This document shows positions 30,627 through 50,707 of a DNA stretch of 64,000 bases, piece by piece. The DNA lies in assembly GCA_963811685.1 (NCBI GenBank), contig CAWESK010000024.1, forward strand, positions 145,460 to 209,459, read 5' to 3'. Made by a program: the position numbers and the translations under genes. The stretch is from an uncultured beta proteobacterium (GTDB lineage Bacteria; Pseudomonadota; Gammaproteobacteria; Burkholderiales; Casimicrobiaceae). The notes under the pieces were generated by a model that was given only the letters and a program-made list of their open reading frames with translations, was not told where the DNA came from and did not search any database. How positions within the stretch are numbered: the stretch's first letter is position 1; each line of letters starts with the position of its first letter.

Positions 30627-30636
30627 GCGCCGCGCG

Positions 30637-31548: not shown

Positions 31549-31551
31549 GCG

Positions 31552-32532
31552 TCACCCCCTGCTCTCGGTCAACCGGACGCGCGGGTCGAGCGCCGAGTAG
31601 AGCACGTCGACGGCCAGGTTGATCGCGATGAAAAAGGTCACGATGACGAGCAGGTAGGCGACGATCACCGGCCGGTCGAGGACGCCGATCGAATCGATCA
31701 GCAGCTTGCCCATCCCGGGCCACGCGAACACGCTCTCGGTGACGATCGCGAACGCGATCAGCGCGCCGAACTGCAGCCCGATGACGGTGACGATCGGGAT
31801 CAGGATGTTGCGCAGCACGTGGACGCCGATCACGCGTGCGTTGGTGAGGCCCTTGGCGCGCGCGAACTTGACGTAGTCCTGCAGCAGCGCCTCGTGCGCG
31901 CCCGAGCGGGTCAGCCGGATCAGCAGCGCGATGTTGAAGAGCGCGAGGTTGGTGGCCGGCATGACGAGATGCTTCAGGCCGTCGATCGAAAGGAACGACA
32001 CCGGGATCACCCCGAAGAGCAGCGTCGTCGGGCCGCGGCCGTTGGAAGGCAGCCAGCCCAGCATTACCGAGAACACCATGATCATCATCAGGCCGACCCA
32101 GAACGTGGGCAGCGAGAAGCCGAGGATCGAGCCCGTCATGATCGCGCGCCCGGCCACGCCGTTCGGCTTGAGACCTGCCCACAGGCCGAGCGGGATCCCG
32201 AGGACGACCGCGATCAGCATCGCGCTGAACGCGAGCTCCATCGTCGCCGGCATGCGCTCGAGAATCAGCCCGAGCGCGGACGTGCTGTGCACGAACGACC
32301 GGCCGAGGTCGCCGTGCATCACGCCGGACAGAAACGTGAAATATTGCTCCCACAGCGGCTTGTCGAGGCCGAGCGCCGCGATCGCGTGCTCGCGCTCGAT
32401 CTGGTCGGCCTGCGGGTTGATGAGGATGTCGATCGGATTGCCGATCGCATAGACGCCGGCGAACACGAGCAGCGACATCACGAACAGCACGACGACGCTC
32501 TGCAGGCTGCGGCGGATGATGTAGACGAGCAT
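31552..32532 (-). CDS. Peptide ABC transporter permease (DppB-like)
   Basis: 326 aa, starting MLVYIIRRSLQSVVVLFVMSLLVF..., the typical DppB/OppB N-terminus. Confidence 0.88.
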   Translation of the reverse strand: MLVYIIRRSLQSVVVLFVMSLLVFAGVYAIGNPIDILINPQADQIEREHAIAALGLDKPLWEQYFTFLSGVMHGDLGRSFVHSTSALGLILERMPATMELAFSAMLIAVVLGIPLGLWAGLKPNGVAGRAIMTGSILGFSLPTFWVGLMMIMVFSVMLGWLPSNGRGPTTLLFGVIPVSFLSIDGLKHLVMPATNLALFNIALLIRLTRSGAHEALLQDYVKFARAKGLTNARVIGVHVLRNILIPIVTVIGLQFGALIAFAIVTESVFAWPGMGKLLIDSIGVLDRPVIVAYLLVIVTFFIAINLAVDVLYSALDPRVRLTESRG

Positions 32533-32607
32533 CGGCGTGGCGGCGGATTCCTAAACGTCAACGGCGGCCGGGATCACCCGACCGCCGCCATTGACGACGC
32601 ACGGGAG

Positions 32608-34194
32608 TCAGCCCTTGACCGGCCGGAACTGGAACGCGAGCGTGTATTCGTCGGTGCGCGGCGTGTACGCGACGTTTTTCGTCGTTGCCCAGACCGTGAA
32701 CTGGAAATGGATCGGCATGATGCCGAGGTCCTCCATCGCAAGCTTGGTCGCGTTCTGCAGCATCGCGCTGCGGTTCTCGTCGTCGACCTGCTGCAGCGCC
32801 TGCTCGATCAGGTAGTCGACCTTGACGTTGCTGTAGCGGCCCCAGTTCACCGCGCCCAGGCCCTTGTCGCGGTTGAACGTCGCGATCAGCGAGCGCAGCG
32901 GGCTCGACGCCTCGCCGGTCGACGCGCCCCAGCCCACCATGTGGAAGCTGAATTCCTGCTTCGACGCGCGCGCCGAGTACGGGGCCATCGGCGCCGTCTC
33001 GACCTTCGAGACGATGCCCACGCGCGTCAGCATCTGCGCCACGGCCTGGACGATCTTCTCGTCGTTCACGTAGCGCCCGGACGGACCGTGGATCGTGATG
33101 TTGAAGCCGTCCGGATAGCCCGCTTCGGCGAGGAGCTTCTTCGCCCCTTCGGGGTCATACGCATCGGCCTTGAGGCCCGGCACGTGGCCGAACAGCTTGT
33201 CGGAGACGAGCTGGCCGGACGGGACTGCCTGCCCCTCCATCACGCGCTCGGCGATCGCCTGCCGGTTGATCGCCTTGGAGATCGCGCGGCGCACCCGGAC
33301 GTCGAGCAGCGGATTCTTGTCCATCGGCTTGCCGGCCTTGTCGGTGATGAACGGGCTGACGCGCGCGAGGTGGTCGAAATTGAAATAGATCACGCGATGC
33401 GAGATCTTCGAGCTCACCTTGAACTTGGGATCGGCCTTGATGCGCGCGAGATCGGCGGTAGGCGTCTGCTCGATCGCGTCGACGTCGCCCGAAAGAAGCG
33501 CCGCCACCCGCGCCGACTCGTTCTTGATGATCTTGAACGTGACGTGCTCCCACGGCGACTTCTCGCCCCAGTAATTGTCGTTGCGGACGAGATCGATGCG
33601 GTCGCCGGAGGTGTACTTGACGAGCTTGTAGCGTCCGCTGCCGATCGCTGCCTTGCCGCTGTTGAAGTCCTCGGTGGAGGCGCCCGTCGCCACCTTTTTC
33701 GACACGATGTAGATCGTCGACAGGTCCGTCGGGGCGAGCGGATACGGCGCCGCGTACTTGAACCGGATCGTGTAGGGATCGACGATCTCCTTCGCGATGA
33801 TGGCCTTCGTGTACGCGGAGAAGGGGCCGGGGCTGTTCGGCACGTTGGGCACGCGGTCGATGGAGAACACGACATCCTCGGCGGTCAGCTCCGAGCCGTC
33901 GGTGAACTTGACCCCTTTGCGCAGCTTGAATTCCCACGTCTTGTCGTCGATCGCCTTCCATGACGTCGCAAGCCCCGGAATCAGCTTCGAATCGGCGTCC
34001 ATCTGCACGAGCTTGTCGAAGACGTGCTCGGCGACGTTGTTGTTCGGGAACAGGTTGAAGAAATGCGGATCCATCGACGTGACGTCGGCGGCGACGGCGA
34101 TCTTGAGGTCCGCCGCCGGGACCAGCGGCGACAGCGCGAAGGCCGCCGCGGCGGCGGCAATGGACAGTGCTCGGCGTAGCGGCGAATGGCGCAT
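32608..34194 (-). CDS. ABC transporter substrate-binding protein, family 5 (DppA/OppA-like)
   Basis: 528 aa with a signal peptide (..AAAAAFALSPLVPAADL) and the SBP_bac_5 pattern. Confidence 0.88.
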   Translation of the reverse strand: MRHSPLRRALSIAAAAAAFALSPLVPAADLKIAVAADVTSMDPHFFNLFPNNNVAEHVFDKLVQMDADSKLIPGLATSWKAIDDKTWEFKLRKGVKFTDGSELTAEDVVFSIDRVPNVPNSPGPFSAYTKAIIAKEIVDPYTIRFKYAAPYPLAPTDLSTIYIVSKKVATGASTEDFNSGKAAIGSGRYKLVKYTSGDRIDLVRNDNYWGEKSPWEHVTFKIIKNESARVAALLSGDVDAIEQTPTADLARIKADPKFKVSSKISHRVIYFNFDHLARVSPFITDKAGKPMDKNPLLDVRVRRAISKAINRQAIAERVMEGQAVPSGQLVSDKLFGHVPGLKADAYDPEGAKKLLAEAGYPDGFNITIHGPSGRYVNDEKIVQAVAQMLTRVGIVSKVETAPMAPYSARASKQEFSFHMVGWGASTGEASSPLRSLIATFNRDKGLGAVNWGRYSNVKVDYLIEQALQQVDDENRSAMLQNATKLAMEDLGIMPIHFQFTVWATTKNVAYTPRTDEYTLAFQFRPVKG

Positions 34195-34301
34195 CGAATA
34201 ACCTCGGCTTCAAAAAGGGAAAGGGCGATGCGCCGCGCCGACGGCCGGCTGCGCGCGGTGGGAATCGTGACGCAATCTATCGCGAAAGGCCCGGCAGCGT
34301 C

Positions 34302-34327
34302 AAAACGAGCGCGCTCCCCGCGCTCGG
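34302..34327 (-). terminator. Rho-independent terminator after the Tat-FAH gene
   Basis: On the minus strand: CGAGCGCG-GGGAG-CGCGCTCG followed by TTTT, immediately 3' of the stop at 34331. Confidence 0.6.
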
Positions 34328-34330
34328 GGA

Positions 34331-35125
34331 TCAGACGACCTTGACGCGAAGGTCCGGGAGACCGTCGATATGCGCGTCCATGATGTCGCCCTTGACCACC
34401 GGACCGACATTCTCGGGGGTGCCGCTGTAGATGATGTCGCCCGGCATCAGCTCGAATGCCTTCGAGAGATTGCTCACCTGCTCGGCGACGCTCCAGATCA
34501 TCTGCTTGAGATTGGCGTCCTGCTTGGTCGCGCCGTTGACCTTGAGCCAGATCGACCCCTGCGTGAAATGGCCGGTCTTCGCCGCGGGCTGCAGCAGTCC
34601 CAGCACCGCCGAATGATCGAAGCTCTTGCCGATTTCCCAGGGTTTCTTCTCGTCCCCCATCGCCCGCTGCAGGTCGCGGCGCGTCATGTCGAGCCCGACC
34701 GTGTAGGCCATCACCATGTCGAGCGCCCGCTCGATGGGAACGTCGCGGCCGCCCTTGCCCAGCGCGGCGACGAGCTCCACTTCGTAGTGGTAATTCTTCG
34801 TCAGTGTCGGATAGGGATGGTCGATCGTCTCGCCGGGCGGCGCGAGCTGTATCGCATCGGTCGGCTTCTGGAAGAAGAACGGCGGCTCGCGATTCGGATC
34901 CGACCCCATCTCGCGCGCATGCGCGGCATAGTTGCGGCCGATGCAGTAGATCCGCCGGACCGGGAACATCTCGCCCGTGCCCGCGATGGGAATGTAGGTC
35001 TGCGCGATGGCGAACGGCGTGCGCGGCTGTGCCTGTGCCGCCGCCGTCCCTGCTCCCCCCGCGGCGGTCCCGGCCATGAGCATCGCCGCCGATTTCAGCA
35101 ATTGACGACGCTGGTTTCGCTTCAT
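34331..35125 (-). CDS. Fumarylacetoacetate hydrolase (FAH) family protein with a twin-arginine signal peptide
   Basis: ATG at 35125 lies 5 nt after GGAGGAGG. N-terminus MKRNQRRQLLKSAAMLMAGTAAGGAGTAAAQA. The FAH domain follows (IYCIGRNYAAHAREMG...FFFQKP...YHYEVELV...IIYSGTPENVGPV). Confidence 0.85.
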   Translation of the reverse strand: MKRNQRRQLLKSAAMLMAGTAAGGAGTAAAQAQPRTPFAIAQTYIPIAGTGEMFPVRRIYCIGRNYAAHAREMGSDPNREPPFFFQKPTDAIQLAPPGETIDHPYPTLTKNYHYEVELVAALGKGGRDVPIERALDMVMAYTVGLDMTRRDLQRAMGDEKKPWEIGKSFDHSAVLGLLQPAAKTGHFTQGSIWLKVNGATKQDANLKQMIWSVAEQVSNLSKAFELMPGDIIYSGTPENVGPVVKGDIMDAHIDGLPDLRVKVV

Positions 35126-35159
35126 GTTGCCTCCTCCAAATGACGCATTGCCGACCGGG

Positions 35160-35705
35160 TCACTCGCACTTCGGGAGGTGGCCGGCGACGAGCGCTTCAA
35201 GCGTACCGTAAAACTGCTCGTCCGTGACGACATCGCGTGCCGCCATTGCGCGCGCCTCGTCGTCGGACAACGGAGCGCCCGCCGGCGCCCAGGCGCGTGC
35301 CGTCACGAGCTCGCCCCGCTCGTAGCGAAGGTCGGTGCGCGGCTTGCCGTTCGAATGCCACGACCGCTTTTCGCCGTGCAGCCGATCGTCGACGTACGCC
35401 GCCTCCGACTTGCGCGGCGCGTCGGCCCCCCGCGCCGGCGGGGCGTACCAGAGCGCGATGGTTCCGGCCTTGCGATCGGTGTCGTAGGGGACGACGGCGA
35501 TGCGCGCGCCGCGCTCCGACCAGAAGAGGAAGGTGCCGGTGCGCCGGCCCTTGGCAAAGGCGCCCGCCACGCGCAGCCGCCCGTCGGCGGAGCGCAGCGT
35601 GTAGGCGCCGTTCGGTTCGCCGTCGCGGCAGGCGCCTTCGACGACGAGACTTTGCGCCATCGCTGCAGGGGCGAGTGCTGCGAGCGCGAAAGCGAGCCGC
35701 CGCAA
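35160..35705 (-). CDS. Secreted MORN-variant-repeat protein (YwqK-like)
   Basis: The proposed TTG start at 35705 gives the signal peptide (M)RRLAFALAALAPAAMA. G..G....W...G repeats follow. The start codon choice is uncertain. Confidence 0.55.
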   Translation of the reverse strand: MRRLAFALAALAPAAMAQSLVVEGACRDGEPNGAYTLRSADGRLRVAGAFAKGRRTGTFLFWSERGARIAVVPYDTDRKAGTIALWYAPPARGADAPRKSEAAYVDDRLHGEKRSWHSNGKPRTDLRYERGELVTARAWAPAGAPLSDDEARAMAARDVVTDEQFYGTLEALVAGHLPKCE

Positions 35706-35722
35706 CCATGTGCACGCCGTGC

Positions 35723-36696
35723 TCAGCTGCGCTTCGCCCACCACGCGCCGAGCTCGCCGACGATCCCGCGCCGGAACGCGAGCACGCAGACGACGAAGAT
35801 GACTCCCGTGATGATCGTCACCCATTCGCCGAAGGGCGCCGAGGTAGACTTTCGAGCGCGACGACGACGATCGCGCCGGCGACCGGGCCGAAGATCGTTC
35901 CCATTCCGCCGAGGAGCACCATCAGCACGACTTCGCCCGAGGTGCCCCAGTAGACGTCGGTGAGGGAAGCCAGCTGGAACACGATGGCCTTGGTCGCACC
36001 GGCGAGCCCGGCGAGCGTCGCCGACAGGACGAACGCCAGGAACTTGTAGCGATCGGCGTCGTAGCCCAGCGACACTGCGCGCGGCTCGTTCTCCTTGATG
36101 GCCTTCAGCACGTTGCCGAAGGGCGAGTGGATCACGCGATAGATGAGGAGGAAGCCGAGCAGGAAGATCGCGAGCACGACGTAGTAGATGACGAGCGGCC
36201 GCGACAGGTCGAGGACGCCGAGCAGCATGCCGCGCGGGACGGCCTGGATGCCGTCCTCGCCGTGCGTGAACGGCGCCTGGATGTAGAAGAAATACACCAT
36301 CTGGGCGATCGCGAGGGTGATCATCGCAAAGTAGATGCCCTGACGGCGGATCGCGAGCGCACCGACGACCGTGCCGAGCAGCGCCGCCGCGAGGGTCCCG
36401 AGCAGGATCGCGAGCTCGGGCGGCGCGCCCCACACCTTCGCGGCGTACGCGCACGCGTAGCCGGCGGTGCCGAGGAACATCGCGTGGCCGAAGGAGAGGA
36501 GTCCGCCGAAGCCCAGCAGCAGGTTGAAGGCACACGCGAAGAGCGCGAAGCACATCGCCTTCATCGCGAAACACCGGGTACACGCCGACGAACGGCGCGA
36601 GGGCGAAGGCCGCCGCCATCACCGCGCGTTCCGACGGCGAAGCCGCGCGCAGCGCGGGGCGTCGCGGCAACGGCGGCGATCGGGAGTCGCCGCCAT
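35723..36696 (-). pseudogene. livM: Branched-chain amino-acid ABC transporter permease (LivM-like), frame-disrupted
   Basis: The core (MKAMCFALFACAFNLLLGFGGLLSFGHAMF...) is in one frame. The N-terminus (..AAAFALAPFVGVYPVF) and C-terminus (FGEWVTIITGVIFVVCVLAFRRGIVGELG) are in another. Frame changes lie near 36566 and 35840. The N-terminal boundary is uncertain. Confidence 0.75.
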
Positions 36697-36697
36697 G

Positions 36698-37585
36698 TCA
36701 GCGCTCGCGGCCGAACAGGCCGGCCGGCTTGATCAGGAGCACGACGACCATGATGACGAAGATCACCGTGCTCGACGCCTCGGGATAGAAAACTTTCGTG
36801 AGGCCCTTCGACCACTCCGAGCCCGAATCCGGTGAGGATCGAGCCCATGATCGAGCCCATGCCGCCGATGACGACGACCGCGAACACGACGATGATCATG
36901 TCGGCGCCCATGAGCGGGTTCACCTGGTAGATCGGCGCGGCCATCACGCCTCCCAGCGCGGCGAGCCCGACGCCGAAGCCGTAGGTCAGCGTGATCATCC
37001 GGGGCACGTTGACGCCGAATGCCCGGACGAGCGACGGATTCTCGGTCGCCGCACGCAGGTACGAGCCCAGCTTCGTGCGCTCGATCACGTACCACGTCGA
37101 GAGGCAGACGGCGAGCGAGGCCACGATCACCCAGGCGCGGTACTTGGGCAGGAACATGAAACCGAGATCGATGCCGCCCGACAGCTCCGGCGGGATCTGG
37201 TACGGCAGCCCGGAGGAGCCGAATTCGTTGCGGAACAGCCCCTGGATGATCAGCGCGAGACCGAAGGTGAGCAGCAGACCGTAGAGGTGGTCGAGCTTGT
37301 AGAGGCGCGAGAGCATCGTGCGCTCGATGATCATGCCGAAGATTCCCATCGACGAGCGGCGTGATCGCGAGCGCCCACCAGTAGCCGATGCCGAGCTTGG
37401 TGCAGCAGGAACCACGCGCAGAACGCGCCCATCATGTATTGCGCGCCGTGCGTGAAGTTGATGATGTTGAGGAGGCCGAAGATCACCGCGAGCCCGAGCG
37501 ACAGCAGCGCGTAGAACGAGCCGTTGATGAGCCCGATCAGCAACTGGCCGAACAGCGCCTGCGTCGAGATGCCGAAGATTTCCAT
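36698..37585 (-). pseudogene. livH: Branched-chain amino-acid ABC transporter permease (LivH-like), frame-disrupted
   Basis: The conserved LivH sequence can be followed through four frames, with changes near 37402, 37350 and 36805. The restored C-terminus reads LTKVFYPEASSTVIFVIMVVVLLIKPAGLFGRER and ends at TGA 36700-36698. Confidence 0.8.
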
Positions 37586-37622
37586 GGAAGACTTCTGATG
37601 TAGCCCCGTCCCGATGCCCCTG

Positions 37623-37644
37623 CCCTCTCCGCGGCGGGAGAGGG
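37623..37644 (-). promoter_or_regulatory. Intercistronic hairpin after the Liv binding-protein gene
   Basis: CCCTCTCC-GCGGCG-GGAGAGGG, an 8-bp stem between the binding-protein stop (37661) and the livH start (37585). Confidence 0.4.
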
Positions 37645-37660
37645 CGGAGGCCGGGCCGAG

Positions 37661-38884
37661 TCTACTTAACCAAGGGACATTCGCCGTCCTTCAGCGGCCG
37701 GAATGCCTGGTCGGCCGGGAATCGTCGCGACGATCTTGTAATAGTCCCACGGGTACTTCGATTCCGCCGGCGTCTTGACCTGCACGAGATAGGCCGGGTG
37801 GATCTTGCGGCCGTCGACGCGCACGCTGCCCTTGCCGAACAGCGGATCGTCGGTCGGCATTTCCTTCATCTTGGCGATCACCTTCGTGCCGTCGTCGCTC
37901 TTCAGCGCTTCCACCGCCTTGAGATAGTGCAGCAGCGACGAGTAGACGCCGGCGTGGACCATCGTCGGGTAGATGCCCTTGTCCAGCGCCTGGAAGCGCT
38001 TCGCGAACGCCCGCGTCTGGTCGTTCATGTCCCAGTAGAACGTCTCGGTGAACGTGAGACCCTGCGCGGTCGGCAGGCCCAGCGAGTGGATGTCGGTCAG
38101 GAACACGAGCAAGCCCGGCGAGCTTCTGGCCGCCCTTCGTGATGCCGAACTCGGACGCCTGCTTGATCGAGTTCGTCGTGTCGCCGCCCGCGTTGGCGAG
38201 GCCGATGACCTTGGCCTTCGACGCCTGCGCCTGCAGCAGGAACGAGCTGAAGTCCTGCGTAGTTGAGGGGCGCCTTCACGCCGCTCCGACGACCTTGCCG
38301 CCGTTCTTGACCACCGCCGCGCTGGTGTCGCGCTCGAGCGCGGCGCCGAACGCGTAGTCCGCGGTGATGAAGAACCAGGTGTCGCCGCCCGTCTTGGTGA
38401 TCGCCGTGCCCGTGCCGTTCGCGAGCATCCAGGTGTCGTAGGCCCAGTGGATCGTGTTCGGCGAGCACGCCTTGCCGGTCAGATCCGAGCTGCCCGGCCC
38501 GGATGCGAGGAACGCCTTGCCCTTGTCCTTGGTGATCTGGCTCACGGCCAGCGCGACGCCCGAGTTCGGCGTGTCGACGATCACGTCCACCTTGTCGGCG
38601 TCGTACCACTGCCGCGCGACGGCCGAGCCGACGTCGGGCTTGTTCTGGTGGTCGGCCGAGACGATCTCGACCTTGTAGCCGCGCTTTTCGATGCCGGAAT
38701 CCTCGACCGCCATGCTTCGCGGCGACGACCGAACCGGCGCCGGCCAGGTCGGTGTAGAGGCTCGACATGTCGGACAGCACGCCGATCTTGATGACGTTGT
38801 CGGAGATCTGCGCGCTGCGCGGCGCCGGTGCCGAGCGCCGCCGCGACGGCGAAGCGCGACCAGGTTGCGTTGCATTGCTTTCAT
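37661..38884 (-). pseudogene. Branched-chain amino-acid ABC transporter substrate-binding protein (LivK/J-like), heavily frame-disrupted
   Basis: ATG at 38884 follows AGGAG. The Peripla_BP_6-like sequence is recoverable only by hopping frames near 38854, 38814, 38715, 38282, 38261, 38110 and 37715. The restored C-terminus is ..IPADQAFRPLKDGECPLVK. Confidence 0.8.
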
Positions 38885-38956
38885 CGTTGCTCCTTCAAAG
38901 GATCATCTGTCGCCCGCCCTGAGCCGGCGCGCGGATATCAATCGGTGGGTGTGGCG

Positions 38957-39710
38957 TCAGACACCGAGATAGTCGTGGAGCTTCTCCATGTTGGCATCGA
39001 GCTCCGCGTTGGGAATCATGTCGACCACGCGCCCGTGGTCCATCACGTAATGCCGGTCGGCGACGGTTGCCGCGAAGCGGAAGTTCTGCTCGACCAGCAG
39101 GATCGTGAAGCCCTGCGCCTTGAGCTTCGCGATCGTGCGCCCGATCTGCTGGACGATCACCGGCGCCAGGCCCTCGGTGGGCTCGTCGAGCAGCAGGAGG
39201 CGCGCGCCGGTGCGCAGGATCCGGCCGATCGCGAGCATCTGCTGCTCGCCGCCCGAGAGCTTCGTGCCCTGGCTCCGCAAGCCGCTCGCGCAGGTTCGGG
39301 AACAGCTCGAAGATCTGGTCGACGGAGAGCCCGCCCTCGCGCACCGCGGGCGGCAGCAGCAGGTTCTCCTCGACGTCGAGCGACGCGAAGATGCCGCGCT
39401 CCTCAGGGCACCAGGCGATGCCGAGACGCGCGATCCGGTTCGACGCGAGCTTCACCGTTTCCGTTCCTTCGAACAGGATCGAGCCTTCGCGGCGCGGCAC
39501 CACGCCCATGATCGACTTCAGCGTCGTGGTCTTGCCGGCGCCGTTGCGTCCGAGGAGCGTCACGACCTCGCCCGCCGTCACGTCGAAGTCGACGCCGTGC
39601 AGCACGTGCGACTCGCCGTACCACGCGTTGAGATTGCGCACGGCGAGGAGCGGCGCTCCCGCCGGTGCGGCGGCGCCCGGAACCGCGGCCGCGGCACGCT
39701 CGTCAGGCAT
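38957..39710 (-). pseudogene. livF: Branched-chain amino-acid ABC transporter ATP-binding protein (LivF-like), one frame change
   Basis: Walker A GRNGAGKTT in the upstream frame. LSGGEQQMLAIGR and LLLLDEPTEGLAP are in the downstream frame. The change is near 39281. Confidence 0.8.
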
Positions 39711-40459
39711 GGGCGGTTCCGAGATAGGCCTCGACCACGCTGGGATGCTTCGAGACGTGCGCGTAGTCGCCTTCGGCCAGCACCTCGCCGCGCGCGAGCA
39801 CGGTGATGTGGTCGGAGAGCGTGGAGACGACCGAAAGATTGTGCTCGACCATGAGCACCGTGCGATCGACCGCGACTCGCTTGATCAGCGCGGCGATCCG
39901 CTCGACGTCCTCATGCGTCATGCCGGCCGTCGGCTCGTCGAGCAGCAGCATCTCGGGCTCGAGTGCGAGCGTGGTCGCGATCTCGAGCGCACGCTTGCGA
40001 CCGTAGGCGAGCTCGCCGGCGTGCGTGTGCGCGAACTCGGACAGGCCGACCGCCTCGAGCAGGTCGCGTGCCTTGTCGTCGAGCCGCGCGAGTGTGCGCA
40101 GCCGAGCGCCAGAAGTCGAACGAGTGCCCGCCCTTGCGCTGCAGCGCGATACGCACGTTCTCGAGCGCGGTGAGGTTCGGGAACACCGCCGAGATCTGGA
40201 ACGAGCGCACGAGCCCCATCCGGGCGATTGCCGCCGGCCGGGACCCGGTAATTTCGCGCCCGTTGTAGAAAATCTGCCCCCGTGTGGGCGTGAGGAAATG
40301 GGTGAGCAGGTTGAAGCAGGTCGTCTTGCCGGCGCCGTTCGGTCCGATCAGCGCATGGATCGCCCCGCGGCGGATCGAGAGCGACACGTCCTTGACGGCG
40401 ACGAAGCCCTTGAACTCCTTGGTGAGCCCCTTCGTCTCGAGTATCGTGTCGGCAGCCAT
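39703..40459 (-). pseudogene. livG: Branched-chain amino-acid ABC transporter ATP-binding protein (LivG-like), one frame change
   Basis: Walker A GPNGAGKTT in the upstream frame. YGRKRALEIATTLALEPEMLLLDEPTAGM is in the downstream frame. The change is near 40102. Confidence 0.8.
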
Positions 40460-40554
40460 TCTGCGCCGGCGCTTCCGGCGCCCGGCCTCCTCATCGCCGT
40501 AGGGAGGCCATTATGCGAAAGCCCCGCCCCGATGGCAATGGCAACGTCCTTCGC

Positions 40555-42742
40555 TCAATACTGGATGCGCGCGAAATAGGTCTTCTGCGCGGCCTCGCGC
40601 GCTTCGCCCAGCGTCCGGATGCCCTGCTCCGCGAGCAGCGGAATCATGCGCAGGAACACTTCCCCCGTCATGATCGCGTCCCCGAGCGCGGTATGGCGGC
40701 CGATTGGATTGACGCCCAGCCGCTCGGCAATCGCCTCGAGCCCGTGCGCCTCGAAATCCGGATGTATCACGGCCGACAGCAGCAGCGTGTCCAGGACGGG
40801 CTGCGCGAAGCGGACGCCGGCGACTCCTTCCTTGAGGCGCAGGAAACGCAGATCGAACGCGGCATTGTGCGCGATCAGCACGGTATCCATGCAGAACTCG
40901 TGGAACGACGGGAGCACCCTTTCGATCGTCGGCTGGTTCGCGAGCATCGGCGTCTCGATGCCCGTGATGCGGCTCGCCTCCGGCGACATCGGACGCCGGG
41001 GGTCGACGAGCTGCTCGAAGACCTCGTTCTCGAGCAGCCGGCCGTTGACGATGCGGACGGCGCCAATCGACACGATTTCGTCGCCCGCGGATGGCGCGAG
41101 CCCGGTCGTCTCCGTATCGAAGACGGTGTAGCTCAGCGACGTGAGCGGCCGATCGTCCTGCTCCGGCGACTGGCCCGGCTGATGGAAGAGGTCGAAATCG
41201 TAGAACTCGGGGCGGCTCCCGCCGGCGCGCGGGGCGCTAAAGCCCGGCTCCTCCGGCTTCGCGACGGGGATCGCAATCCGGAAGAATTCGCGTTGCGAAG
41301 GCTTGTGAATCTGATACCAGATCTCGGCATTGTGGCGCTCGACGATTTGCTTCAGCGTCAACGGCGACGCCTCGCCGCCCAGTTCCATTGCATCGGTCTG
41401 CCACGCCATCGTAGTCTCGGTTCCGAGCGGCGCACCGGTCCAGACGAGGTCGAGGTGCGCAAGCGCGCCGGCCGCTTCGAGCCCGAAGCGCAGTTCGCGG
41501 ATGCCAAACTCGTCTGACAGGCGGCTCGCGAGATAGCTGATCGCCTGCATCAGCGAGTAGCTGTCGACCTTGACCCAGATGCGTCTCGTCGATCGTCTCG
41601 AGCTTCGTCGGCAGCCCGACGTTCGTCTCGATCCGCCGCCGCGCCGCCGCGATCAGGTCGGCGCCGCGCATGTCTTCCAGCGGCCACTCGGTCCGCAGTG
41701 CGTCCGCGAACTCGCCGACGGTCGCGTCGAGCCGCGCCGTCAGCTGCCGCGCTTCGTCGCCGATGACGCCGATGAAACGGTTGCGCTCGTCGTCCGTCAT
41801 GCCCGGAAATGCGGCGATCGTCTCGACCGCGGCGCGGACGCTTCCGAGCGAGGCGCGCGTGCCTTGCGTCAGCGTCTGCACCAGCAGGTCGCGTCGACGG
41901 CCACTCTCGATCCGCCGCGTGATGTCGTCCAGCACGAGGACGAAACCGGTGACGCCGCCGGGGCCGGAAGCGTCCTGCGTCAACGCCGGGCTCCGCGCCG
42001 AAGACAGGCGCCATCTGCACGCGCACGAGCTGCCCCGCGGGTGCGGTGGTGACGAAGCTCGCCACCGGCGCTTGCGTCCCCTGCCGGAGGCGTTCGCGGA
42101 CGTTCTCCAAGGCATGGATGATGAGGTTGCGGTCGAAGACGGCGAAGATCGAGCGGCCGAGGCCGACGAGGCTCGGTCCCTTGCCGGTCGCGGCCGCGCC
42201 GTCCCGCGGTTTCTTCAGCAGCTGCATCGCGCGTGCGTTGTAGAGCAGGACGCGCCCCTCGACGTTGCACACGATCACGCTCTGCGCGAGCTCCGACATG
42301 AGCGCGGCGAGCCGGTTCTTTTCCTGCTCGAGACGAGCGTTGGCGTCGCGCACGCGGCGCTCGACGTCCTTCCGGAGCGCCTCGTGCGCGTCGGCGAAAC
42401 CATTGATGCTCGCGGCCAGTTGCCGGATCTCGGCCGCGCCGATGCGCGGCGCCCGATGCGCCGGGTTCGCGGACAGCATGATGCGGGCGTCCTCCGCGAG
42501 CCGCCGGGGCGGCGTCACGTAGCGCCGAAACAGCGCCCGGACGAGCAGCAACAACGGCACGAGCAGCAGCAGCGAAACGACGACGACGCTGGCGGCATGC
42601 TGGCGCAGCGCCAAGAAGAGCGGCGCGCGCTCCTGCTCGGCTCATGTCGGCCCCGACGAGGACGACGATCGCCGCCATCGCGGCGAGGACGAATCCCCCA
42701 TGCCGCCAGCAGCGTCAGCGCAACGCGGGTTCGCTCCGGCAC
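40555..42742 (-). pseudogene. TM-HAMP-PAS-(degenerate HisKA/HATPase)-DEDDh 3'-5' exonuclease fusion protein, frame-disrupted
   Basis: GTG at 42742 lies 3 nt after the receiver-gene stop. Two TM segments, then a PAS-like region. An H-box-like stretch has Gln in place of His (LTQGTRASL). Exonuclease motifs are FDTETTGL, AHNAAFDLRFL and HTALGDAIMTGEVF. Frame changes lie near 42694, 42639, 41984 and 41581. Confidence 0.75.
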
Positions 42743-42745
42743 CCG

Positions 42746-43114
42746 CTACTCCCCGAGCATCTCGCCGACCTTCGCGATGAGGTCGCGCGTGGAGAACGGC
42801 TTCGTGACGTAGGCATCGGCGCCGATCGCCAGGCCCTTCGTCACCTCGACGTCGCGCCCCTTGGCCGAAAGCATGACGATCTTGATGTCCTTCCATTCCG
42901 GGTTCTCGCGCACCTTCTGGCAGACGTCGTATCCGCTGACGCGCGGCATCATCACGTCGAGCAGGATCAGATCGGGATGAAACTCATCTACGGCCTTGAG
43001 CGCCTCGGCGCCGTCGCTCACGACGCGGATGTCGTAGCCGCGCTGCTTCATCAGGAATTCCAGCGAGACGACGATGTTGGGCTCGTCGTCCGCGATCAGG
43101 ATTCTTCTTGCCAT
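42746..43114 (-). CDS. Stand-alone response-regulator receiver (CheY-like), intact
   Basis: 122 aa, MARRILIADDEPNIVVSLEF...DLILLDVMMPRVSGYDV...IVMLSAKG...GADAYVTKPF. There is no output domain. The RBS is GGGGAAGG. Confidence 0.9.
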   Translation of the reverse strand: MARRILIADDEPNIVVSLEFLMKQRGYDIRVVSDGAEALKAVDEFHPDLILLDVMMPRVSGYDVCQKVRENPEWKDIKIVMLSAKGRDVEVTKGLAIGADAYVTKPFSTRDLIAKVGEMLGE

Positions 43115-43158
43115 GGCAACCTTCCCCTCTCCCATGCACGCTTTTCGTTCCGCCGGCA

Positions 43159-45936
43159 TCACACTTTCGCCTTGGACGTGTGCCCGCCCGCAAGGCGGTC
43201 GGGCGTCCCCGCTTCGGGAAGCTCGAAAACGAACGTCGCGCCCTCGCCCGCTGCGCTCTCTACCCAAAGGCGGCCGCCGAAATGCTCGATGATCTGTCGG
43301 CTGATGGGCAGTCCGAGCCCGGTTCCCTTCGGTTTTTCCGTCATCGTGTCGTCCGCCCTGGCGAAATTTCTCGAAGATCATCGTCCGCTCGTCGGCGCGC
43401 ACTCCGGGCCCGTTGTCGGCTCACGGATACGCGCACGAGTCCGGCGAGCGCGGCGAGCGCGACGACGACCCGTCCCTCCTCGGGTGGCGCGAACTTGGCG
43501 GCATTCGAAAGAAGATTGATGAGCACCTGCAACAGCCGGTCGCGATCGGCGCGCACCGGAGTCGCGCCGGGCGCGACCCGCACTTCGAGAGCTACGCCGC
43601 GCGACCGGAAGAGCTGTCCCGTCGCGGCGATCGAATCGTCGATGACGCTCGCAAGATCGACGCGCGACACCTGCCACTCGGCCCGCCCCGACTCCAGCTT
43701 GGCGAGGTCGAGGACCTGGTTGATGAGGCGCGTCAGGCGCTCGCTCTCCTGGATGACGATGCCGAGAAAGCGCTGCCGCTCCGCCGCGTCGAGATCCGGG
43801 TTGTCGCGCAGGATCTCGGAGAACGCGCGAATCGACGTGAGCGGCGTGCGCAATTCGTGGGTGACGGTGGAAACGAAGTCGTCCTTCAACCGGTCGAGCT
43901 CCTTCAGCCGCTCGTTGGCCGCGCGCAATTCGGTGGTGACGGTCATCAGCGCCTGCGACTTCTGCCTGAGCTCGTGGCTGTAGGCAATCACCTGCGACGC
44001 CTCGTCCAGCATCGAGCGCACCTCGTCCAGCGTGAGCGTGTCTTCCTTGACCGTCGAGGCCACCATGATCCGCGCCGAGGCGCCGCCGATGGCGCCGGCA
44101 AGCGCCGTCTCGGCGAAGCGGACGAGCAGCGCGTCGGCCGGCAGCTCCGCCGGCGACGCGTATCCGCGGCGCCGCGCATAGTCGACGAAGGCGGCAGCGG
44201 CACGCTCCGCGGCCCAGAAAACGCGCGAGCAGAGTCCGCAAGTCGGGCAGCGAGGCCGTCCCTTTCCATGACGTCGATGGCCTCGCCCTCGCCTGAATGC
44301 CGGAACACGTCGACGAAGCGCGCCGCCTGCGCCTCGTCCGCCACCGACTGCTTCGTCGACAGCGAGACCAGGATGTAGGCGCCGACATTGGCGATCATGC
44401 TCCACAGCATCGCGTGCGTGATGTCGTCGAGGCCGTCGAGCCCGAACAGCGCGTACGGCTTCAGGAGCGCGATGCCGAACGGCCCATCCTGCAGGAAGCT
44501 CGGGGCAGCCATCCCGACTTCGCGAAGGAAGGCAGCAGCAGCGTGTAGAGCCAGAGCGCAAATCCGGCGCAGAGCCCGGCCAGCGCCCCTGCGCGCGTTG
44601 CGCCCTTCCAGTAGATGCCGCCCAGTGTGGCCGGCGCGAACTGCGCGACGGCGGCGAAGGAGATGAGGCCGATCGCCACCAGCGCGTAGGCCTCTCCCGC
44701 AAGGCGGAAATAGAGATAGCCGAGCAGGATGACCGCGACGATCGCGCCACGGCGAATTCCGAGCAGGAGTCCCGTCAGGTTCTGGCGCTCGGCAAGCCGC
44801 ATCGAGCGCATCCGCAGCAGCACGGGCATCACGAGGTCGTTGCACACCATCGTCGACAGCGCGATCGTCTCGACGATCACCATGCCGGTCGCCGCCGACA
44901 ACCCGCCGATGAAGACGAGCAGCGCGAGCGTCTCCTGTTCTCGGCCATCGGCAGTGTCAGCACGAACGTGTCGGGATCGACGGTGGCGCCGAGAAATGCA
45001 GCACGCCGCCGAACGCCACCGGCACCACGAACACGTTCATCGCCAGCATGTAGAGGGGGAACAGCCAGATCGCCTTTCCGAGGTGTTTCTCGTTGACGTT
45101 CTCGACCACGGCGACTGGAACTGCCGCGGCAGGAACATGATCGCTAGCATCGACAGCACCGTGAGCCACGCCCAGCTCGCGTAGCTCCCGGCGGCGACGC
45201 CGATCGGCGCGAATAGCGCGCGAGACGCGGATGGGTGCCCGCCCTGGGCGAAAATGTCCGCGAAACCCGGTGGATGCCCCACGTCGACGAAGATGCCGAC
45301 GGCGACGAAAGCAACCATCTTGACCAGCGATTCGAACGCGATCGCGGCGACGAGACCCTCATGACGCTCGGAGGCGTCAAGATGCCGCGTGCCGAACAGG
45401 ATCGTGAACGTCGCGAGCAGCAGCCGCCATCCGAACGCGGTGTCGGCATGGATCGGAACAGTTGCCGGGGAGGTCGCCACGCATCCGGGTACTGGCGACC
45501 AGGATCGTGAAGCTGCTGGAAATGGCCTTTAGCTGGAGCGCGATGTACGGCACGATGCCGATCACCGCGATTACGGTGACAAGCCCGGCGACGAGCGCGC
45601 TCTTGCCGTAGCGCGACGAGATGAAATCGGCAAGCGACGTGATGCGGTTCGTCTTGCTGATGCGAATGATCTTTCGCATGACAAGCCACCAGAGCGCCAT
45701 CATCAGCGTCGGACCGATGTAGATCGGGCAGGAAGCCGACGCCGTTCCGCCGCCCGCCCGACGCTGCCGTAGAACGTCCACGCGGTCGCGTAGACGCCGA
45801 GCGATAGCGAGTAGACGTACGGATTCGCGATGATCGAGCGGCGCTCGTCCGCGCGCCGGTCGCCGTAGCTGGCGATCGCGAAGAGGATGCCGATGTAGCC
45901 GAGCGCGACGGGGATGATTACCCAGGTCTGGAGCAT
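43159..45936 (-). pseudogene. Sensor histidine kinase with an N-terminal sodium/solute-symporter (SSF) domain (CbrA/CrbS-like architecture), heavily frame-disrupted
   Basis: SSF-type TM segments from MLQTWVIIPVALGYIGILF. H-box VSTVTHELRTPLTSIRAFSEIL, N-box LLQVLINLLSNAAKF, G-box GTGLGLPISRQIIEHFGG. The sequence is recoverable only across about 11 frame changes (near 45747, 45725, 45485, 45115, 44990, 44937, 44503, 44269, 44211, 43418 and 43357). Confidence 0.8.
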
Positions 45937-45957
45937 GTTCGCGGCCGCCCGGCGTCG

Positions 45958-46190
45958 CTACCGGGGTCGCTCGATCACGAGCGCGAGCAATCCGATCAGC
46001 ACCGCCCACGCGCCGAAGATGTAGGCGTAGAGCACCGGTATTCCGATACGTCTGCCGCACGATTGAACAGCGCGAGCAGCGGATAGTTGAACAGCGACAC
46101 GCCGAGTAGGAATACCGCCACCAGACGCCGGCTCTTCAAGGTCGACGTAACATCGGTCGTCTTCTGCCCGCGTTTCGGCGGGATACGCAT
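45958..46190 (-). pseudogene. Small membrane protein preceding the SSF-kinase (DUF3311-like), one frame change
   Basis: ..KSRRLVAVFLLGVSLFNYPLLALFNRAAD, then after a shift near 46048, IGIPVLYAYIFGAWAVLIGLLALVIERPR, with the stop at 45960-45958. The start (ATG near 46190 or 46211) is uncertain. The first part is in frame with the DUF294 ORF. Confidence 0.4.
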
Positions 46191-48122
46191 TCGGCCAACT
46201 ACTACCATCTGATCAGCGCAGCGCGCAGGCTGATCAAGCCGGTAGAAAGGGCGTAGCCGCTCCTGCAGTGCTTCGCCTACGGAGCGATCCTCCCTCAGCA
46301 TCCGCTGATCGATTTCGTTCAGTGAGGTAGGGATCGATGCGGTTCGGATCGTCCTCGTTACGGTCGGTCCGTGGCTGACGTACAGGCGCAGAAGCTGCAG
46401 GTACGAGAACGCCTCGACGGTCGCGTCGATGTGCCGCGGCTCGACCTCGAGGCGCTGCGCCGGCAAGCCGCAGCCGCGCACGGTCCCCGAGTCCGCAATG
46501 CCGTGCGCGAGTGCGAATACTCGTGCGCAGTCCACGAACAGGCGCGTGCCGCGGGTCTTGAGGTCGATGGTGCCCTTGACCTTGGGATCGTCGTCGACGG
46601 TGAAAGTGCGGATGAGCCCGAGCGGCGGCTCGACATCGAGCGCGTTCTGCACCATGAGGCGAAGGAACAGATGGCTTTCCTTCGTGTGGACGAAAAGCCA
46701 ATTGCGCAATTCGTCACAGAGCTTCGGGTCGCCGTAGAGCGGCCGAAAATCGAACATGATGTTCGCCCCGAGCAGTGCCTGCGGGGAAGGCGAGCGGATC
46801 CAGCCCAGGAACCTCTGCCTCCATTCCTCGGTCGAGAGGCAATATTCCGGGTTGCCTGCCATCACGTTCCCGGTGCACAGAGGGAATCCCAGCGTGTCGA
46901 GGCAGGTGTTGACCTCGCGCGCGAAGCCAATCAGCCGCTCGCGCCGCTCCGTCGCCTGCCGAGACTCTCCGGCCGTGAACAGGAGCGCGTTGTCCTGGTC
47001 CGTGGCGAAGGTCTGCTCGCCCCGGCCCTCGCTCCCCAGCGCGAGCCAGCACCAGTCGATATCAGAGAGGTCGTGCCGTGGGAGTACCAGCTCGATCGCG
47101 CGACGCGAAAGCGCGTCATTGAGTGCCGCAATCGTGCGCGTCACGGGCTCGGCGCCGACGCCCTGCGCCAGCAGATTCCGCGTCAGCAGGCGGATGTCGT
47201 CCGCGGCGCGCCCCAGCGCGTCGACGCTCTCGGCAGATCGGAGGACCTCGTTGACCGTTTGCATCGACACGCGCTGTAGCGCGAACAGATCGCGCTCGTT
47301 GACCACGCCGCAGACCCGGCCGTTCTCCACGACCACAACCTGCCGGATGCCGCGCTCGGCCATCACGTGCATTGCCTCATACGCGGTCGCAGACGCCGGC
47401 AGGGAGAATACGGGGGAGGACATCGTCTCGGCGACCGCCACATCGAGCGAGAGCCCGGGCAGCACGACACGCTCCAGCAGGTCGACGAGCGTGAACATCC
47501 CGACGGGCATTTCGCCAGGGTCGAGCACGATGATCGTGCGCACGTTCGCATCCGCCATTCTTTGCGCGGCTTCGCGCAGGCTGGCCGTCGCAGAACAGGT
47601 GACCGGTCGATTTCGCACGAGCTCGCCAAGCGAGCGAGCCAGGGTCTGCTGCTCGGCAACACGCTGGCTGTACTCGCTGTGCAGGCTCTCCAGCGATTGC
47701 TTCAGCGTCTCGGTGATCGCCTGGGTGCAGTAGCGCTCGAATTCGGGCGAGGCTTTTCGCAGTTCCAGGAAGTCAGCGCGTGCAAGCTGGTAGCAGTAGG
47801 TGTCCTTGATCGCAGTAAATATTTTTGTGGTCGTGCCGCCTGCCGACAAGGCGCCCACCGGAAACAGCTCGCCCGGGCCGAGCGTGCGGTCCGGTTCCGC
47901 CTTGGCATTATTGGAGCGGCTGCCGACGAGTCCGCGCTGGACGATGTGCAGGTGCGTGACGGTTCCGCTGTGGGTTGCAAGAATAGTCTCGTCCTTTGCA
48001 AAGTGGGCGAGCTGCAGCCGCGGCACCAGGAATGCGAGTGCCTCGTCCGTCATTCGGTTGAATGGGGCATGGCGGCAAAGGAATTCCTTCGTCGCGTCGG
48101 CGCTCTGGGTTCTTGCCGGCAT
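45996..48122 (-). CDS. cNMP-binding / tandem-CBS / DUF294 putative nucleotidyltransferase; the 3' boundary is unclear because the ORF runs on into the next small gene
   Basis: Starts MPARTQSADATKEFL. Contains a cNMP-binding domain and two CBS domains. NTase motif WLALGSEGRGEQTFATDQDNALLF, then a DUF294_C-like tail ending around ..LQERLRPFYRLDQ (near 46230). No stop codon occurs there, so the frame continues to 45996. Confidence 0.75.
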   Translation of the reverse strand: MPARTQSADATKEFLCRHAPFNRMTDEALAFLVPRLQLAHFAKDETILATHSGTVTHLHIVQRGLVGSRSNNAKAEPDRTLGPGELFPVGALSAGGTTTKIFTAIKDTYCYQLARADFLELRKASPEFERYCTQAITETLKQSLESLHSEYSQRVAEQQTLARSLGELVRNRPVTCSATASLREAAQRMADANVRTIIVLDPGEMPVGMFTLVDLLERVVLPGLSLDVAVAETMSSPVFSLPASATAYEAMHVMAERGIRQVVVVENGRVCGVVNERDLFALQRVSMQTVNEVLRSAESVDALGRAADDIRLLTRNLLAQGVGAEPVTRTIAALNDALSRRAIELVLPRHDLSDIDWCWLALGSEGRGEQTFATDQDNALLFTAGESRQATERRERLIGFAREVNTCLDTLGFPLCTGNVMAGNPEYCLSTEEWRQRFLGWIRSPSPQALLGANIMFDFRPLYGDPKLCDELRNWLFVHTKESHLFLRLMVQNALDVEPPLGLIRTFTVDDDPKVKGTIDLKTRGTRLFVDCARVFALAHGIADSGTVRGCGLPAQRLEVEPRHIDATVEAFSYLQLLRLYVSHGPTVTRTIRTASIPTSLNEIDQRMLREDRSVGEALQERLRPFYRLDQPARCADQMVVVGRMRIPPKRGQKTTDVTSTLKSRRLVAVFLLGVSLFNYPLLALFNRAADVSEYRCSTPTSSARGRC

Positions 48123-48416
48123 GGCGCGAAACGATCGACCCGATAATTTCGCATGATGCGGCACGCCCGATGTCGCGCGCAAGCAACGACCCCAGAGCGC
48201 GGGGAAATCGCCGGGTCAAACGAGGCGCGCAGACCGGCCGATCCGCTTGAGAGCCTTGTGCGATTTCCGGCGAAGTGGCTCGCGCCCCGCCCGACGAGGG
48301 TGCGGTTGCTTCAACGGGGAGCACCGAGCCCGCTCAGCACGAGTGCGTTGCACGCTGCGGTACCTATGCGAGGTGGATTCGCGCCGCGCATGGCATTGCG
48401 CGCCATGGCGCGGCCC

Positions 48417-48453
48417 CCAAAAGAAGGGCCGCCGGGGTTGCCCCGGCGGCCCT
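48417..48453 (-). terminator. Rho-independent terminator after actP
   Basis: On the minus strand: AGGGCCGCCGGGG-CAA-CCCCGGCGGCCCT followed by TCTTTTGG, 25 nt after the actP stop. Confidence 0.8.
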
Positions 48454-48477
48454 GCTCCTCGAAGGTGAGCCGACTAC

Positions 48478-50172
48478 TCAGTGCGCCGACGCAAGCTCGG
48501 CGCCCAGACCTGTCTCGGAGCGGACCTCCTGCGCGGCGAATGCTGCGCGCTCCTTGTCCGCGCGGGCACTCCTGTCGGTCACCGACGCAACGTAGGCGAC
48601 GATCAATGCCGCCGGCAGCACGACGAAGGTCGGGAAGTCGTACGGGAAGATTGCCGGCCCCATGTCGAGCACCTTGGTCCAGACGGTCGGACCGATGATC
48701 AACAGGCCGATCGACCCGAGAATCCCCGTATATCCGCCGAGTACCGCCCCGCGCGTCGTCAGCCCTTTCCAGAACACCGCCAGGACCAGGATCGGGAAGT
48801 TCGCACAGGCGGCGATCGAGAACGTCAGCGCGACGATGTATGCAACGTTCTGCTTCTCGAAGGCGATACCAAGGAGCACGGCAAGAATCCCCAGGCCGAT
48901 CACGCAGACCTTCGACACCCAGACTTCCTGCGCCTCGGTGGCCTTGCCCTTCATGATCACATTCGCATAGATGTCGTGCGACAGTGCCGAGGCGCCCGCA
49001 AGCGTGAGCCCCGACACCACCGCCAGGATCGTGGCGAAGGCGACCGCGGCGATGAAGCCGAGGAAGAAATCCCCGCCAATCGCGTGTGACAGGTAGACCG
49101 CCGGCATGCTGCTGCCGCCCTTGAGGTTGAGCACGTTCTTGGTGACGTCGACGACATATTCGGCGTTGCCGGCGACGAGCACGATAGCGCCGAACCCGAT
49201 GATGAAGGTCAGGATGTAGAAGTAGCCGATGAAACACGTGCCGTAGAGCACCGACTTGCGTGCCGCCTTGGCGTCCCCGACGGTGAAGAAGCGCATCAGA
49301 ATGTGTGGCAGGCCGGCGGTCCCGAACATCAGCGTCAGGCCGAGCGAGATCGATTCGATTGGATTGGCCTTCGCCCCGATGGGCACCACCGACTGCATGA
49401 TTTCAAGGTGCTTGGGATGGGCTGCGACGGCGTCGGAGAAGAGCTTGTTGAAGCTCCAGCCTTCGTGCGCCATGACCCCCAGCGCCATCAATGTCGCGCC
49501 ACCGAGCAGCAGGGCCGCCTTGATGATCTGCACCCACGTCGTAGCCTTCATCCCGCCGAAGGTGACGTAGATGATGATCAGCGCACCGATGATGACGATG
49601 GAAAAGCGGTAGGAAATCTGCGGGACGAGCGTGTGCAGCAACTGCCCGGCGCCCACCGCCTGCCCGATCAGGTACCAGATCACGACGATCAGCGACCCGA
49701 TCGCGGCCATCGTGCGGACCGGTCCCTGCTGGAGCCGGAACGAGACGACGTCGGCATAGGTGAACTTGCCGAGGTTGCGCAGCCGTTCGGCGATGAGGAA
49801 CAGGATGATCGGCCAGCCGACCAGCCAGCCCACCGAAAAGATCAGCCCGTAGAAGCCATTGAAATAAACGAGCGCGGCAATGCCCAGGAATGACGCCGCT
49901 GACATGTAGTCGCCGGCGATGGCCATCCCGTTCTGGAGGCCGGTGATGCCGCGGCCGGCCGCATAGAAATCGGTCGCGGTCTTAGTCCGCATCGCCGCCC
50001 AGTACGTGATGACCAGGGTAATCGCGACGAAGATGATGAACATGATGACCGCGTGCCAATTGACCGGGACCTCCGCCGCGGGCGATGCGACATCCGCCGC
50101 CAGCGCCAGTTGCGATGCCAGCAGCGCGACCAAGCCCGCGAAGGCGCTGAAGACCGTCTTGATCGTTGTCAT
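48478..50172 (-). CDS. actP: Cation/acetate symporter ActP (SSF family)
   Basis: 564 aa, full length. N-terminal signal-like segment and the conserved ...[30 protein letters not shown].... The ATG overlaps the yjcH stop (ATGA). Confidence 0.9.
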
Positions 50173-50483: not shown

Positions 50484-50707
50484 GATGGTCCCCCATTCGG
50501 CCAATGACCAGCACGTCGATCCGGGCGCCGGCGGCACTCCTCGGCCGGCTCGGAAGGGTCGGGTTTCTCATGCATCCTCCTCTCGTCGTGACGTTCAAAC
50601 TTGTTTGGTGCAGTTCGCGCGCTTCGGCGGACGGTGGTCTGCTCTTGTTCTCCGGATCACCGCCCGGTCACTTCACCCGGATTTCCGCATCCCACCGATA
50701 CCCCGCC

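Follow-up and report, generated by a model that had tools for sequence, protein, structure and literature searches.

A frameshift-rich block at a Liv transporter locus of a Casimicrobiaceae genome: very probably a consensus artefact

Residual indels in long-read genomes and metagenomes are a known problem, and the locus described here resembles it closely. In both cases one-base indels break open reading frames without creating stops, they occur in contiguous assemblies and are absent from fragmented ones, marker-gene completeness is lowered (82% in the present genome), and independent contigs of the short-read type correct them. PMC9262707 ties the problem to coverage: bins below 40-fold need polishing. 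Indel errors that fragment gene calls are also a topic of the proovframe preprint (10.1101/2021.08.23.457338) and of Kastor (PMC12007338). There are differences, however. About 80% of the present indels are extra bases, and the indels gather in patches of 1-12 kb with sharp bounds.

Two other phenomena come into consideration. Reductive evolution of bacteria also leaves several adjoining genes frameshifted. In bacterial pseudogenes, though, deletions predominate and stops accumulate, whereas here we see neither stops nor large deletions nor eroded motifs; insertions prevail at a dN/dS of about 0.2, and essential genes elsewhere in the genome bear the same lesions. Chimeric or strain-mosaic metagenome contigs share with this genome the redundant locus copies and, at the block, a mismatch to outside contigs that exceeds that of the flank; a strain switch at the block edges, in contrast, is here no more than a possibility.

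The window, i.e., the whole stretch of DNA analysed, comprises 64,000 nucleotides. A preliminary description had noticed in it a block dense in frame changes beside a clean stretch, and this contrast is real: in nine minus-strand genes between 35,840 and 46,150 frameshift-aware protein alignment reveals 32-35 one-base frame disruptions, as opposed to zero candidates of the codon-usage frame HMM in 5.9-35.7 kb. The events were called with the proteins of five clean same-genus loci as references, aligned to the window, and supported by tblastn, DNA multiple alignment and the frame HMM. The block and its genes are the following.

35,840-46,481, no strand: error-rich stretch with 32-35 one-base indels that break the frame as far as 46,150 and, beyond this, 4 compensating ones reaching to 46,481
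35,726-36,625, minus strand: LivM-type branched-chain amino-acid permease (BPD_transp_2 in the clean orthologue); 2-3 events, extra bases at ~35,840 and ~35,847 and a third event at ~36,570, at the likely start codon
36,701-37,585, minus strand: LivH-type permease; 3 extra bases at ~36,806, ~37,350 and ~37,393 (5/5 references)
37,665-38,884, minus strand: periplasmic binding protein (Peripla_BP_6); 5 extra bases at ~37,719, ~38,116, ~38,714, ~38,814 and ~38,851, two of the five supported by one reference and the DNA alignment
38,960-39,737, minus strand: LivF-type ABC ATPase; one extra base at ~39,277-39,281 (5/5 references)
39,706-40,459, minus strand: LivG-type ABC ATPase with BCA_ABC_TP_C tail; one extra base at ~40,096-40,100 (5/5 references)
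40,558-42,742, minus strand: 726-aa protein with C-terminal RNase_T exonuclease domain; 4 events, extra bases at ~41,581, ~41,975, ~42,640 and ~42,697
42,749-43,120, minus strand: intact response-regulator receiver gene (Response_reg, E=4e-29); 0 events (5/5 references)
43,146-45,936, minus strand: sensor histidine kinase of ~930 aa with HisKA and HATPase_c; 13-15 events, with extra bases as far as 44,269 and missing bases predominating in 44,502-45,496
45,961-46,153, minus strand: small membrane ORF of 65 aa; 1-2 missing bases (~46,050, ~46,144)
46,236-48,182, minus strand: gene of a cNMP-binding/CBS/DUF294 nucleotidyltransferase; ORF open, with two compensating indel pairs in the last ~80 codons (46,326 with ~46,365; 46,458 with 46,481; 5/5 references)

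The earlier estimate of about 30 frame changes needs revision. It stands for LivH (3), the two ABC ATPases (1 each) and the exonuclease-domain protein (4), while the binding protein goes down from 7 to 5 and the others go up, the sensor kinase from 11 to 13-15, LivM from 2 to 2-3 and the small ORF from 1 to 1-2. That the receiver gene alone is intact was seen correctly. The right edge, formerly placed at 46,190, moves to about 46,481 with the four compensating events in the C-terminal part of the DUF294 protein. Events are spaced at one per ~310 bp; the block edges are therefore fixed only to ~300 bp, and their nearness to gene borders, to which attention had been drawn, carries no weight.

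In about 25 of the events a base has been added and in about 9 one is missing, the latter all lying to the right of 44.5 kb. The share of extra bases is thus 74% (~25/34) instead of the five in six first read. Inserted bases are G or C in 17/25 cases. Since this equals the GC content of the block (67%), it reflects composition rather than a preference. The impression that insertions often fall outside homopolymers holds: the inserted base is identical to a neighbour in 6/25 cases compared to 38% for all block bases, and the insertions are therefore not homopolymer-linked. In this they differ from the usual Nanopore consensus error, as characterised in PMC9262707. In-frame stops, of which the first reading had noticed no obvious case, number zero in the corrected frames of the block genes; a second alignment round gave one stop in 1/57 alignments, with a read-through ORF of G009.

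The remainder of the window outside 5.9-35.7 kb is not clean either. Pfam domains reveal true frame breaks in several further genes, among them an enoyl-CoA hydratase (~51,186) and a DegT aminotransferase (~62,905). Two others outside the block are listed here.

4,765-5,655, minus strand: N-terminal part of a MASE1 sensor, consecutive domain parts in three frames; 3 breaks at ~4,915, ~5,078 and ~5,433 (Pfam)
57,957-59,343, minus strand: cysS (cysteinyl-tRNA synthetase), a single locus in the assembly, in two frames split at ~58,635

The same picture is seen throughout the genome (G000). In 4.25 Mb on 26 contigs the codon-usage frame detector found 1,455 frame-break candidates (0.342/kb), 1,200 of the extra-base and 255 of the missing-base type. 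They cluster strongly: counted over bins of 5 kb, they give a variance-to-mean ratio of 3.15, 299 bins are empty where 151 are expected, and 53 hold at least 6 candidates where 7 are expected. The patches are sharply bounded and 1-12 kb in size, the block being the third longest of 56. Heterogeneity of indel direction across 101 clusters is marginal (P ~0.04). Uniform error, as had been argued, cannot yield such a contrast; the error is simply non-uniform. Housekeeping functions are not spared. Apart from cysS, coaBC/DFP is likewise broken, and both are essential genes; PTS enzyme I, gshB, transaldolase, G6PD, asparagine synthase, DctM and others are also affected. For rpoC the search recovered no more than the C-terminal third, which lies in a messy part of contig C12, and the gene was left out of this comparison.

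Six fragmented assemblies of the same genus contain 7 candidates in 193 kb (0.036/kb; 2 extra-base, 5 missing-base), which makes the lesion type about nine times commoner in G000. The few-contig sister genome G006 shows 123 candidates in 414 kb (0.297/kb; 101 extra-base, 22 missing-base), again patchy, and is clean at the orthologous locus. It had first been chosen as a clean control; as it carries patches at other loci, the fragmented assemblies were used as the baseline. Relatives differ in gene content at the locus, with an additional 0.8 kb in G006 and G010 and one additional plus-strand gene in G015.

Independent contigs were available from four soil or rhizosphere metagenomes (runs X1-X4), which contain just 0.28-0.35 of the sampled words and whose listed records disagree with the window at 1-6% of letters; the comparison rests on 32 listed of ~25,300 records and on 12 of 50 indel rows, and block parts that no listed record covers count neither for nor against. 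Among the records listed, the indels are absent wherever they are covered, i.e., for ~15/34 events, 9 of which were deduced from gap counts per record and not from positions. Within the block, 15/16 listed records have exactly as many gaps as events were predicted for their interval, the remaining one having one gap more, while 14/16 listed flank records have none. The reading frame is regained at 35,841, 35,848, 38,114, 44,986, 45,726 and 45,745 in the indel rows listed. In the LivM-type permease one metagenome contig lacks 35,841 and 35,848; in the binding protein contigs of two runs leave out 38,114; in the sensor kinase contigs insert T at 44,986, omit 45,726 and insert TC at 45,745. What these contigs demonstrate is an intact locus in close relatives, not in the window's own strain. 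Mismatch to them, again among the records listed, is 242/7,662 letters (3.2%) in the block versus 146/7,220 (2.0%) in the flank, which fits a strain switch but would also be compatible with faster real divergence.

Selection does not appear to be relaxed. The frame-corrected liv operon has a dN/dS of 0.17-0.20 over ~1,505 codons, compared to 0.125-0.142 for clean pairs, and the block proteins are 68-86% identical to their orthologues. With the error-rich relative G001 the window gives a dN/dS of 0.19. Two livH events (~37,347 and ~37,394) coincide in site with extra bases of G001, once with the same base, which purely random error does not predict. Of four columns apparently shared with G001, two turned out to be different bases at different places. 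Ancestral frameshifts common to the window and G001 were considered and rejected, given this dN/dS and the clean close relative G002, which has neither livH extra base. Overall, the lesions are absent from G002 and, where covered, from the X1-X4 contigs, and only 2 sites coincide with G001.

Redundant strain-variant copies of loci exist within the assembly at 3-9% mismatch. Where the two copies of a pair differ in candidate count, the more broken one also has more one-base extras in 5/6 pairs; C18 versus C2, for instance, shows 75 versus 18 extras and 37 versus 4 candidates. Repeats found by self-BLAST amount to 11.3% in patches against a comparison value of 4.3%. The block has 0 repeated bases, and paralogy or repeats as its cause were rejected.

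Judged from these sequence comparisons, the block is very probably a consensus or polishing artefact, probably one that arose where the assembly followed a strain variant at low coverage, rather than something biological. Of the three origins proposed at the outset without a choice between them, a locally unpolished or low-coverage stretch draws support from the genome-wide patches, the broken essential genes and the indel-free independent contigs. A different strain or population probably contributes, as the redundant copies, one of them with one-base extras, suggest. The third proposal, an accessory transporter and signalling block recently silenced in this strain and now gathering frameshifts, we consider highly improbable. 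Of course, the lesions stand in the deposited sequence, the genes are of an accessory type at a locus of variable gene content, and the metagenome contigs mismatch the block somewhat more than the flank. Yet the same lesion type pervades the genome at nine times the control rate and strikes the single-copy genes cysS and coaBC, the contiguous sister genome is patched at other loci, stops are lacking and dN/dS is 0.17-0.20, the predominance of extra bases is opposite to the deletion bias of bacterial pseudogenes, and ~15/15 covered events are absent from close natural relatives among the records listed.

Instead of low coverage, the context of certain bases, e.g., modified ones, might have been systematically misread by the basecaller or the consensus step. 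The two livH sites common to G000 and G001, and absent from G002, speak for such miscalls, as does the strong extra-base bias that G000 shares with G006. At the insertion density of G001 (one per ~135 bp), however, chance alone would give about one coincidence, and most events of identical local context, such as ~36,802, ~38,110, ~38,714 and ~39,277, are not shared by G001. Nor did visual inspection of the 25 insertion contexts reveal a common motif, and patches with sharp bounds would not follow from a context effect alone. This explanation, too, is very unlikely. Barely credible is the idea that the indels are real, that is, that the assembly captured a low-abundance soil strain with recent localised bursts of +1 insertions ("mutation showers") in kilobase patches; such bursts would have to be too recent for stops or a signal of relaxed selection.

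The consensus artefact would have come about as follows. The genome appears to be a contiguous, strain-mixed metagenome-assembled genome that is accurate over most of its length but interrupted by about a hundred patches with residual single-base consensus errors, ~3 per kb and mostly spurious extra bases. These would break each gene they cross without making stops or eroding motifs. The patches may be sites where few reads backed the consensus, possibly because the contig path followed a low-abundance strain variant or because correcting reads failed to map. The block at 35.8-46.5 kb would be among the largest of them, its consensus never having been properly corrected.

The finding is of interest solely for quality control. 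Some 1,300 spurious frameshifts in patches would distort gene calls, pseudogene counts, completeness and the inference of gene loss for this genome, and the same holds for several contiguous sister genomes of the genus (G001, G006, G016 and G017). Most likely, the Liv-type ABC transporter, the exonuclease-domain protein, the receiver and the sensor kinase are intact in the organism, and the transporter and signalling genes of the block should be treated accordingly.

The frame-broken stretch of minus-strand genes that begins at about 35,840 is, with little room for doubt, an artefact of assembly. It lies in a genome of 4.25 Mb (26 contigs, 67% GC, reported completeness 82%), where the window occupies positions 145,460-209,459 of contig C24. 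A codon-usage frame HMM, trained on the long ORFs of this genome itself, returned a series of same-strand frame switches across 35.7-46 kb. Events, meaning one-base frame-breaking indels, were counted by frameshift-aware alignment between the window and proteins from five relatives, supported by tblastn and DNA alignment. They total 32-35 (about 25 extra and about 9 missing bases), versus 0 HMM switches in 5.9-35.7 kb, and the preliminary description was right to see a broken block beside a clean stretch. Its right edge at 46,190, however, has to be moved to about 46,481, because the last ~80 codons of the DUF294 gene contain four more events, two compensating pairs seen with 5/5 references. 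Uninterrupted orthologous loci exist in eight genomes of the same genus (G005, G006, G010, G014, G015, G012, G007 and G002).

Genes of the block (minus strand), in the order of the clean orthologues, with events
LivM-type permease, BPD_transp_2: 2-3
LivH-type permease, BPD_transp_2: 3
Binding protein, Peripla_BP_6: 5
ABC ATPase, LivF-type: 1
ABC ATPase, LivG-type: 1
726-aa protein with C-terminal RNase_T exonuclease domain: 4
Receiver: 0
Sensor kinase of ~930 aa, HisKA/HATPase_c: 13-15
Small ORF of 65 aa: 1-2
cNMP/CBS/DUF294 protein: the two compensating pairs

PAS and SSF domains, also named at the outset, were not reported by Pfam at E up to 1e-4. Between the genes of the second ABC ATPase and the exonuclease-domain protein, G006 and G010 have about 0.8 kb extra (L009 5855-6760 and L012 5419-6325 of the orthologous loci), including a 229-aa ORF without Pfam match; the window lacks it at ~40460-40557, and G015 has a 649-aa plus-strand ORF instead.

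The events are not uniform in kind. Events 1-22 (35,840-44,269) are all extra bases, and among the 38 events all 11 missing-base ones come within the final 16 (P = 3.6e-6). Directly after the 22 successive extra-base events, 7 of the 8 events at 44502-45496 are missing bases; this sub-block is among just four clusters of the genome with an extra-base share of at most 40%. Of 25 single-base insertions placed by DNA alignment, 17 (68%) are G or C, the GC content of the block being 66.8%, and the inserted base equals a neighbour in 6/25, against a background of 38% over all block bases. That indels left over in long-read assemblies cause frameshifts is well described; the problem grows at low coverage and polishing cures it (PMC9262707). 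The proovframe preprint and Kastor are further sources on the subject. In contrast to those described, the errors here are insertion-biased and not linked to homopolymers. Repeats were rejected as a cause of the block, which contains 0 repeated bases.

Genes that decay naturally acquire stops and show a deletion bias. The block has neither: frameshift-aware protein alignment found 0 in-frame stops in the frame-corrected genes, and the proteins retain 68-86% amino-acid identity to their G010 orthologues. The dN/dS check proposed in the preliminary description was run on the five liv genes (~1,505 codons, projected onto the orthologue's frame). It gave 0.17-0.20 against relatives and 0.188 against the closest one, G001, compared with 0.125-0.142 for clean pairs. 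The liv genes are under purifying selection, and a small surplus over the clean pairs is as expected from scattered errors.

Independent metagenome sequence points the same way. Of the words sampled from window 30,001-40,000, soil and rhizosphere metagenome runs (n=20) contain a fraction of 0.18-0.35, and contigs of the four best runs were compared with window 31,001-51,000; the counts refer to 32 listed records of ~25,300 and 12 listed indel rows of 50. Within the block, the gap number equals the predicted event number in 15/16 listed records, with one surplus gap in the other, while 14/16 flank records have no gap. Among the indel rows listed, contigs omit the bases at 35,841, 35,848, 38,114 and 45,726 and add bases at 44,986 and 45,745, all predicted events. 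In these records about 15/34 events are covered, nine of them matched by gap count rather than position, and the contigs did not confirm any of the covered events. Mismatch between the listed records and the window is 1-6% of letters (block 242/7,662, 3.2%; flank 146/7,220, 2.0%), so that the contigs represent close relatives, strain identity not being assured.

Frame breakage goes with assembly type rather than with the locus: G001 has 27 candidate frame breaks here, G016 has 11, G017 has 6 and G009 has 5, and the four many-contig assemblies have 0. G001 (L005; its 27 candidates lie within 8.4 kb), G016 (L004) and G017 (L007) are contiguous, with reported completeness of 55-79% and even heavier breakage at the locus. 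Six fragmented same-genus assemblies (340-560 contigs) yielded 7 candidates in 193 kb (0.036/kb), without an extra-base bias (2 extra, 5 missing). G006 (20 contigs, 96% completeness) is clean at the locus, yet was dropped as a clean control, since it has similar patches elsewhere (123 candidates in 414 kb, 0.297/kb; 101 extra, 22 missing). Two livH events (~37,347 and ~37,394) coincide with extra bases in G001, the same base in one case; the clean close relative G002 has neither. With one G001 insertion per ~135 bp, about one coincidence is expected by chance. Sequence context may partly govern the errors, the shared sites then being context-dependent miscalls.

Across the genome the HMM called 1,455 candidates (0.342/kb; 1,200 extra-base, 255 missing-base); it recovers only 17 of the 32-35 block events, and dense patches are thus undercounted. 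Candidates cluster in 5-kb bins (variance-to-mean ratio 3.15), with 299 empty bins versus 151 expected (Poisson) and 53 bins with at least 6 candidates versus 7. They form 101 tight clusters, or 56 patches by a looser rule, among which the block is third longest. All four candidate sites of the window beyond the block were borne out by Pfam, adjacent frames holding successive domain parts.

Broken genes of the window outside the block
MASE1 sensor: three breaks
Enoyl-CoA hydratase: frame break
cysS: frame break
DegT aminotransferase: frame break

The MASE1 mini-patch, 4765-5655 (-), lies in the N-terminal region of a hybrid kinase (PAS/HisKA/HATPase/receiver), the rest of which is at 3132-4778. 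The 806-aa open frame at 56917-59337 (-) is no gene: cysS (tRNA-synt_1e positions 7-206) is read through out of frame into the next gene, an FAA hydrolase, and true cysS goes on at 57,957-58,634 in another frame. cysS has one locus only in this assembly. In 12 other patches Pfam found split coaBC (single locus), PTS enzyme I, glutathione synthetase, transaldolase, G6PD, phosphoglucomutase, asparagine synthase, DctM, sulfate permease and others. Of rpoC, the C-terminal third alone was found (profile positions 908-1146, C12:6700-12600); upstream of it strands and frames are mixed, which suggests misassembly or very heavy errors.

Redundant copies hint at how patches could arise. The locus at C18:110,223-130,996 recurs as contig C2 with 7.3% mismatch; the copy on C18 forms a large patch of its own, with 75 one-base extras versus 18 in C2 and 37 candidates versus 4. 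Candidate counts are unequal in 6/7 further redundant pairs or contig-end overlaps, and the more broken copy has more one-base extras in four of these six (about equal in one, reversed in one). Probably, the patches would be stretches where the contig path has low read support, e.g., along a minor strain variant, so that insertion errors of the raw-read type would stay in the consensus there. Redundant versions with 3-9% mismatch (C2/C18:110223-130996, C11/C6:117795-131494, contig ends C23/C1 and C14/C18) mean that the bin is strain-mixed and overstated in both size and copy numbers.
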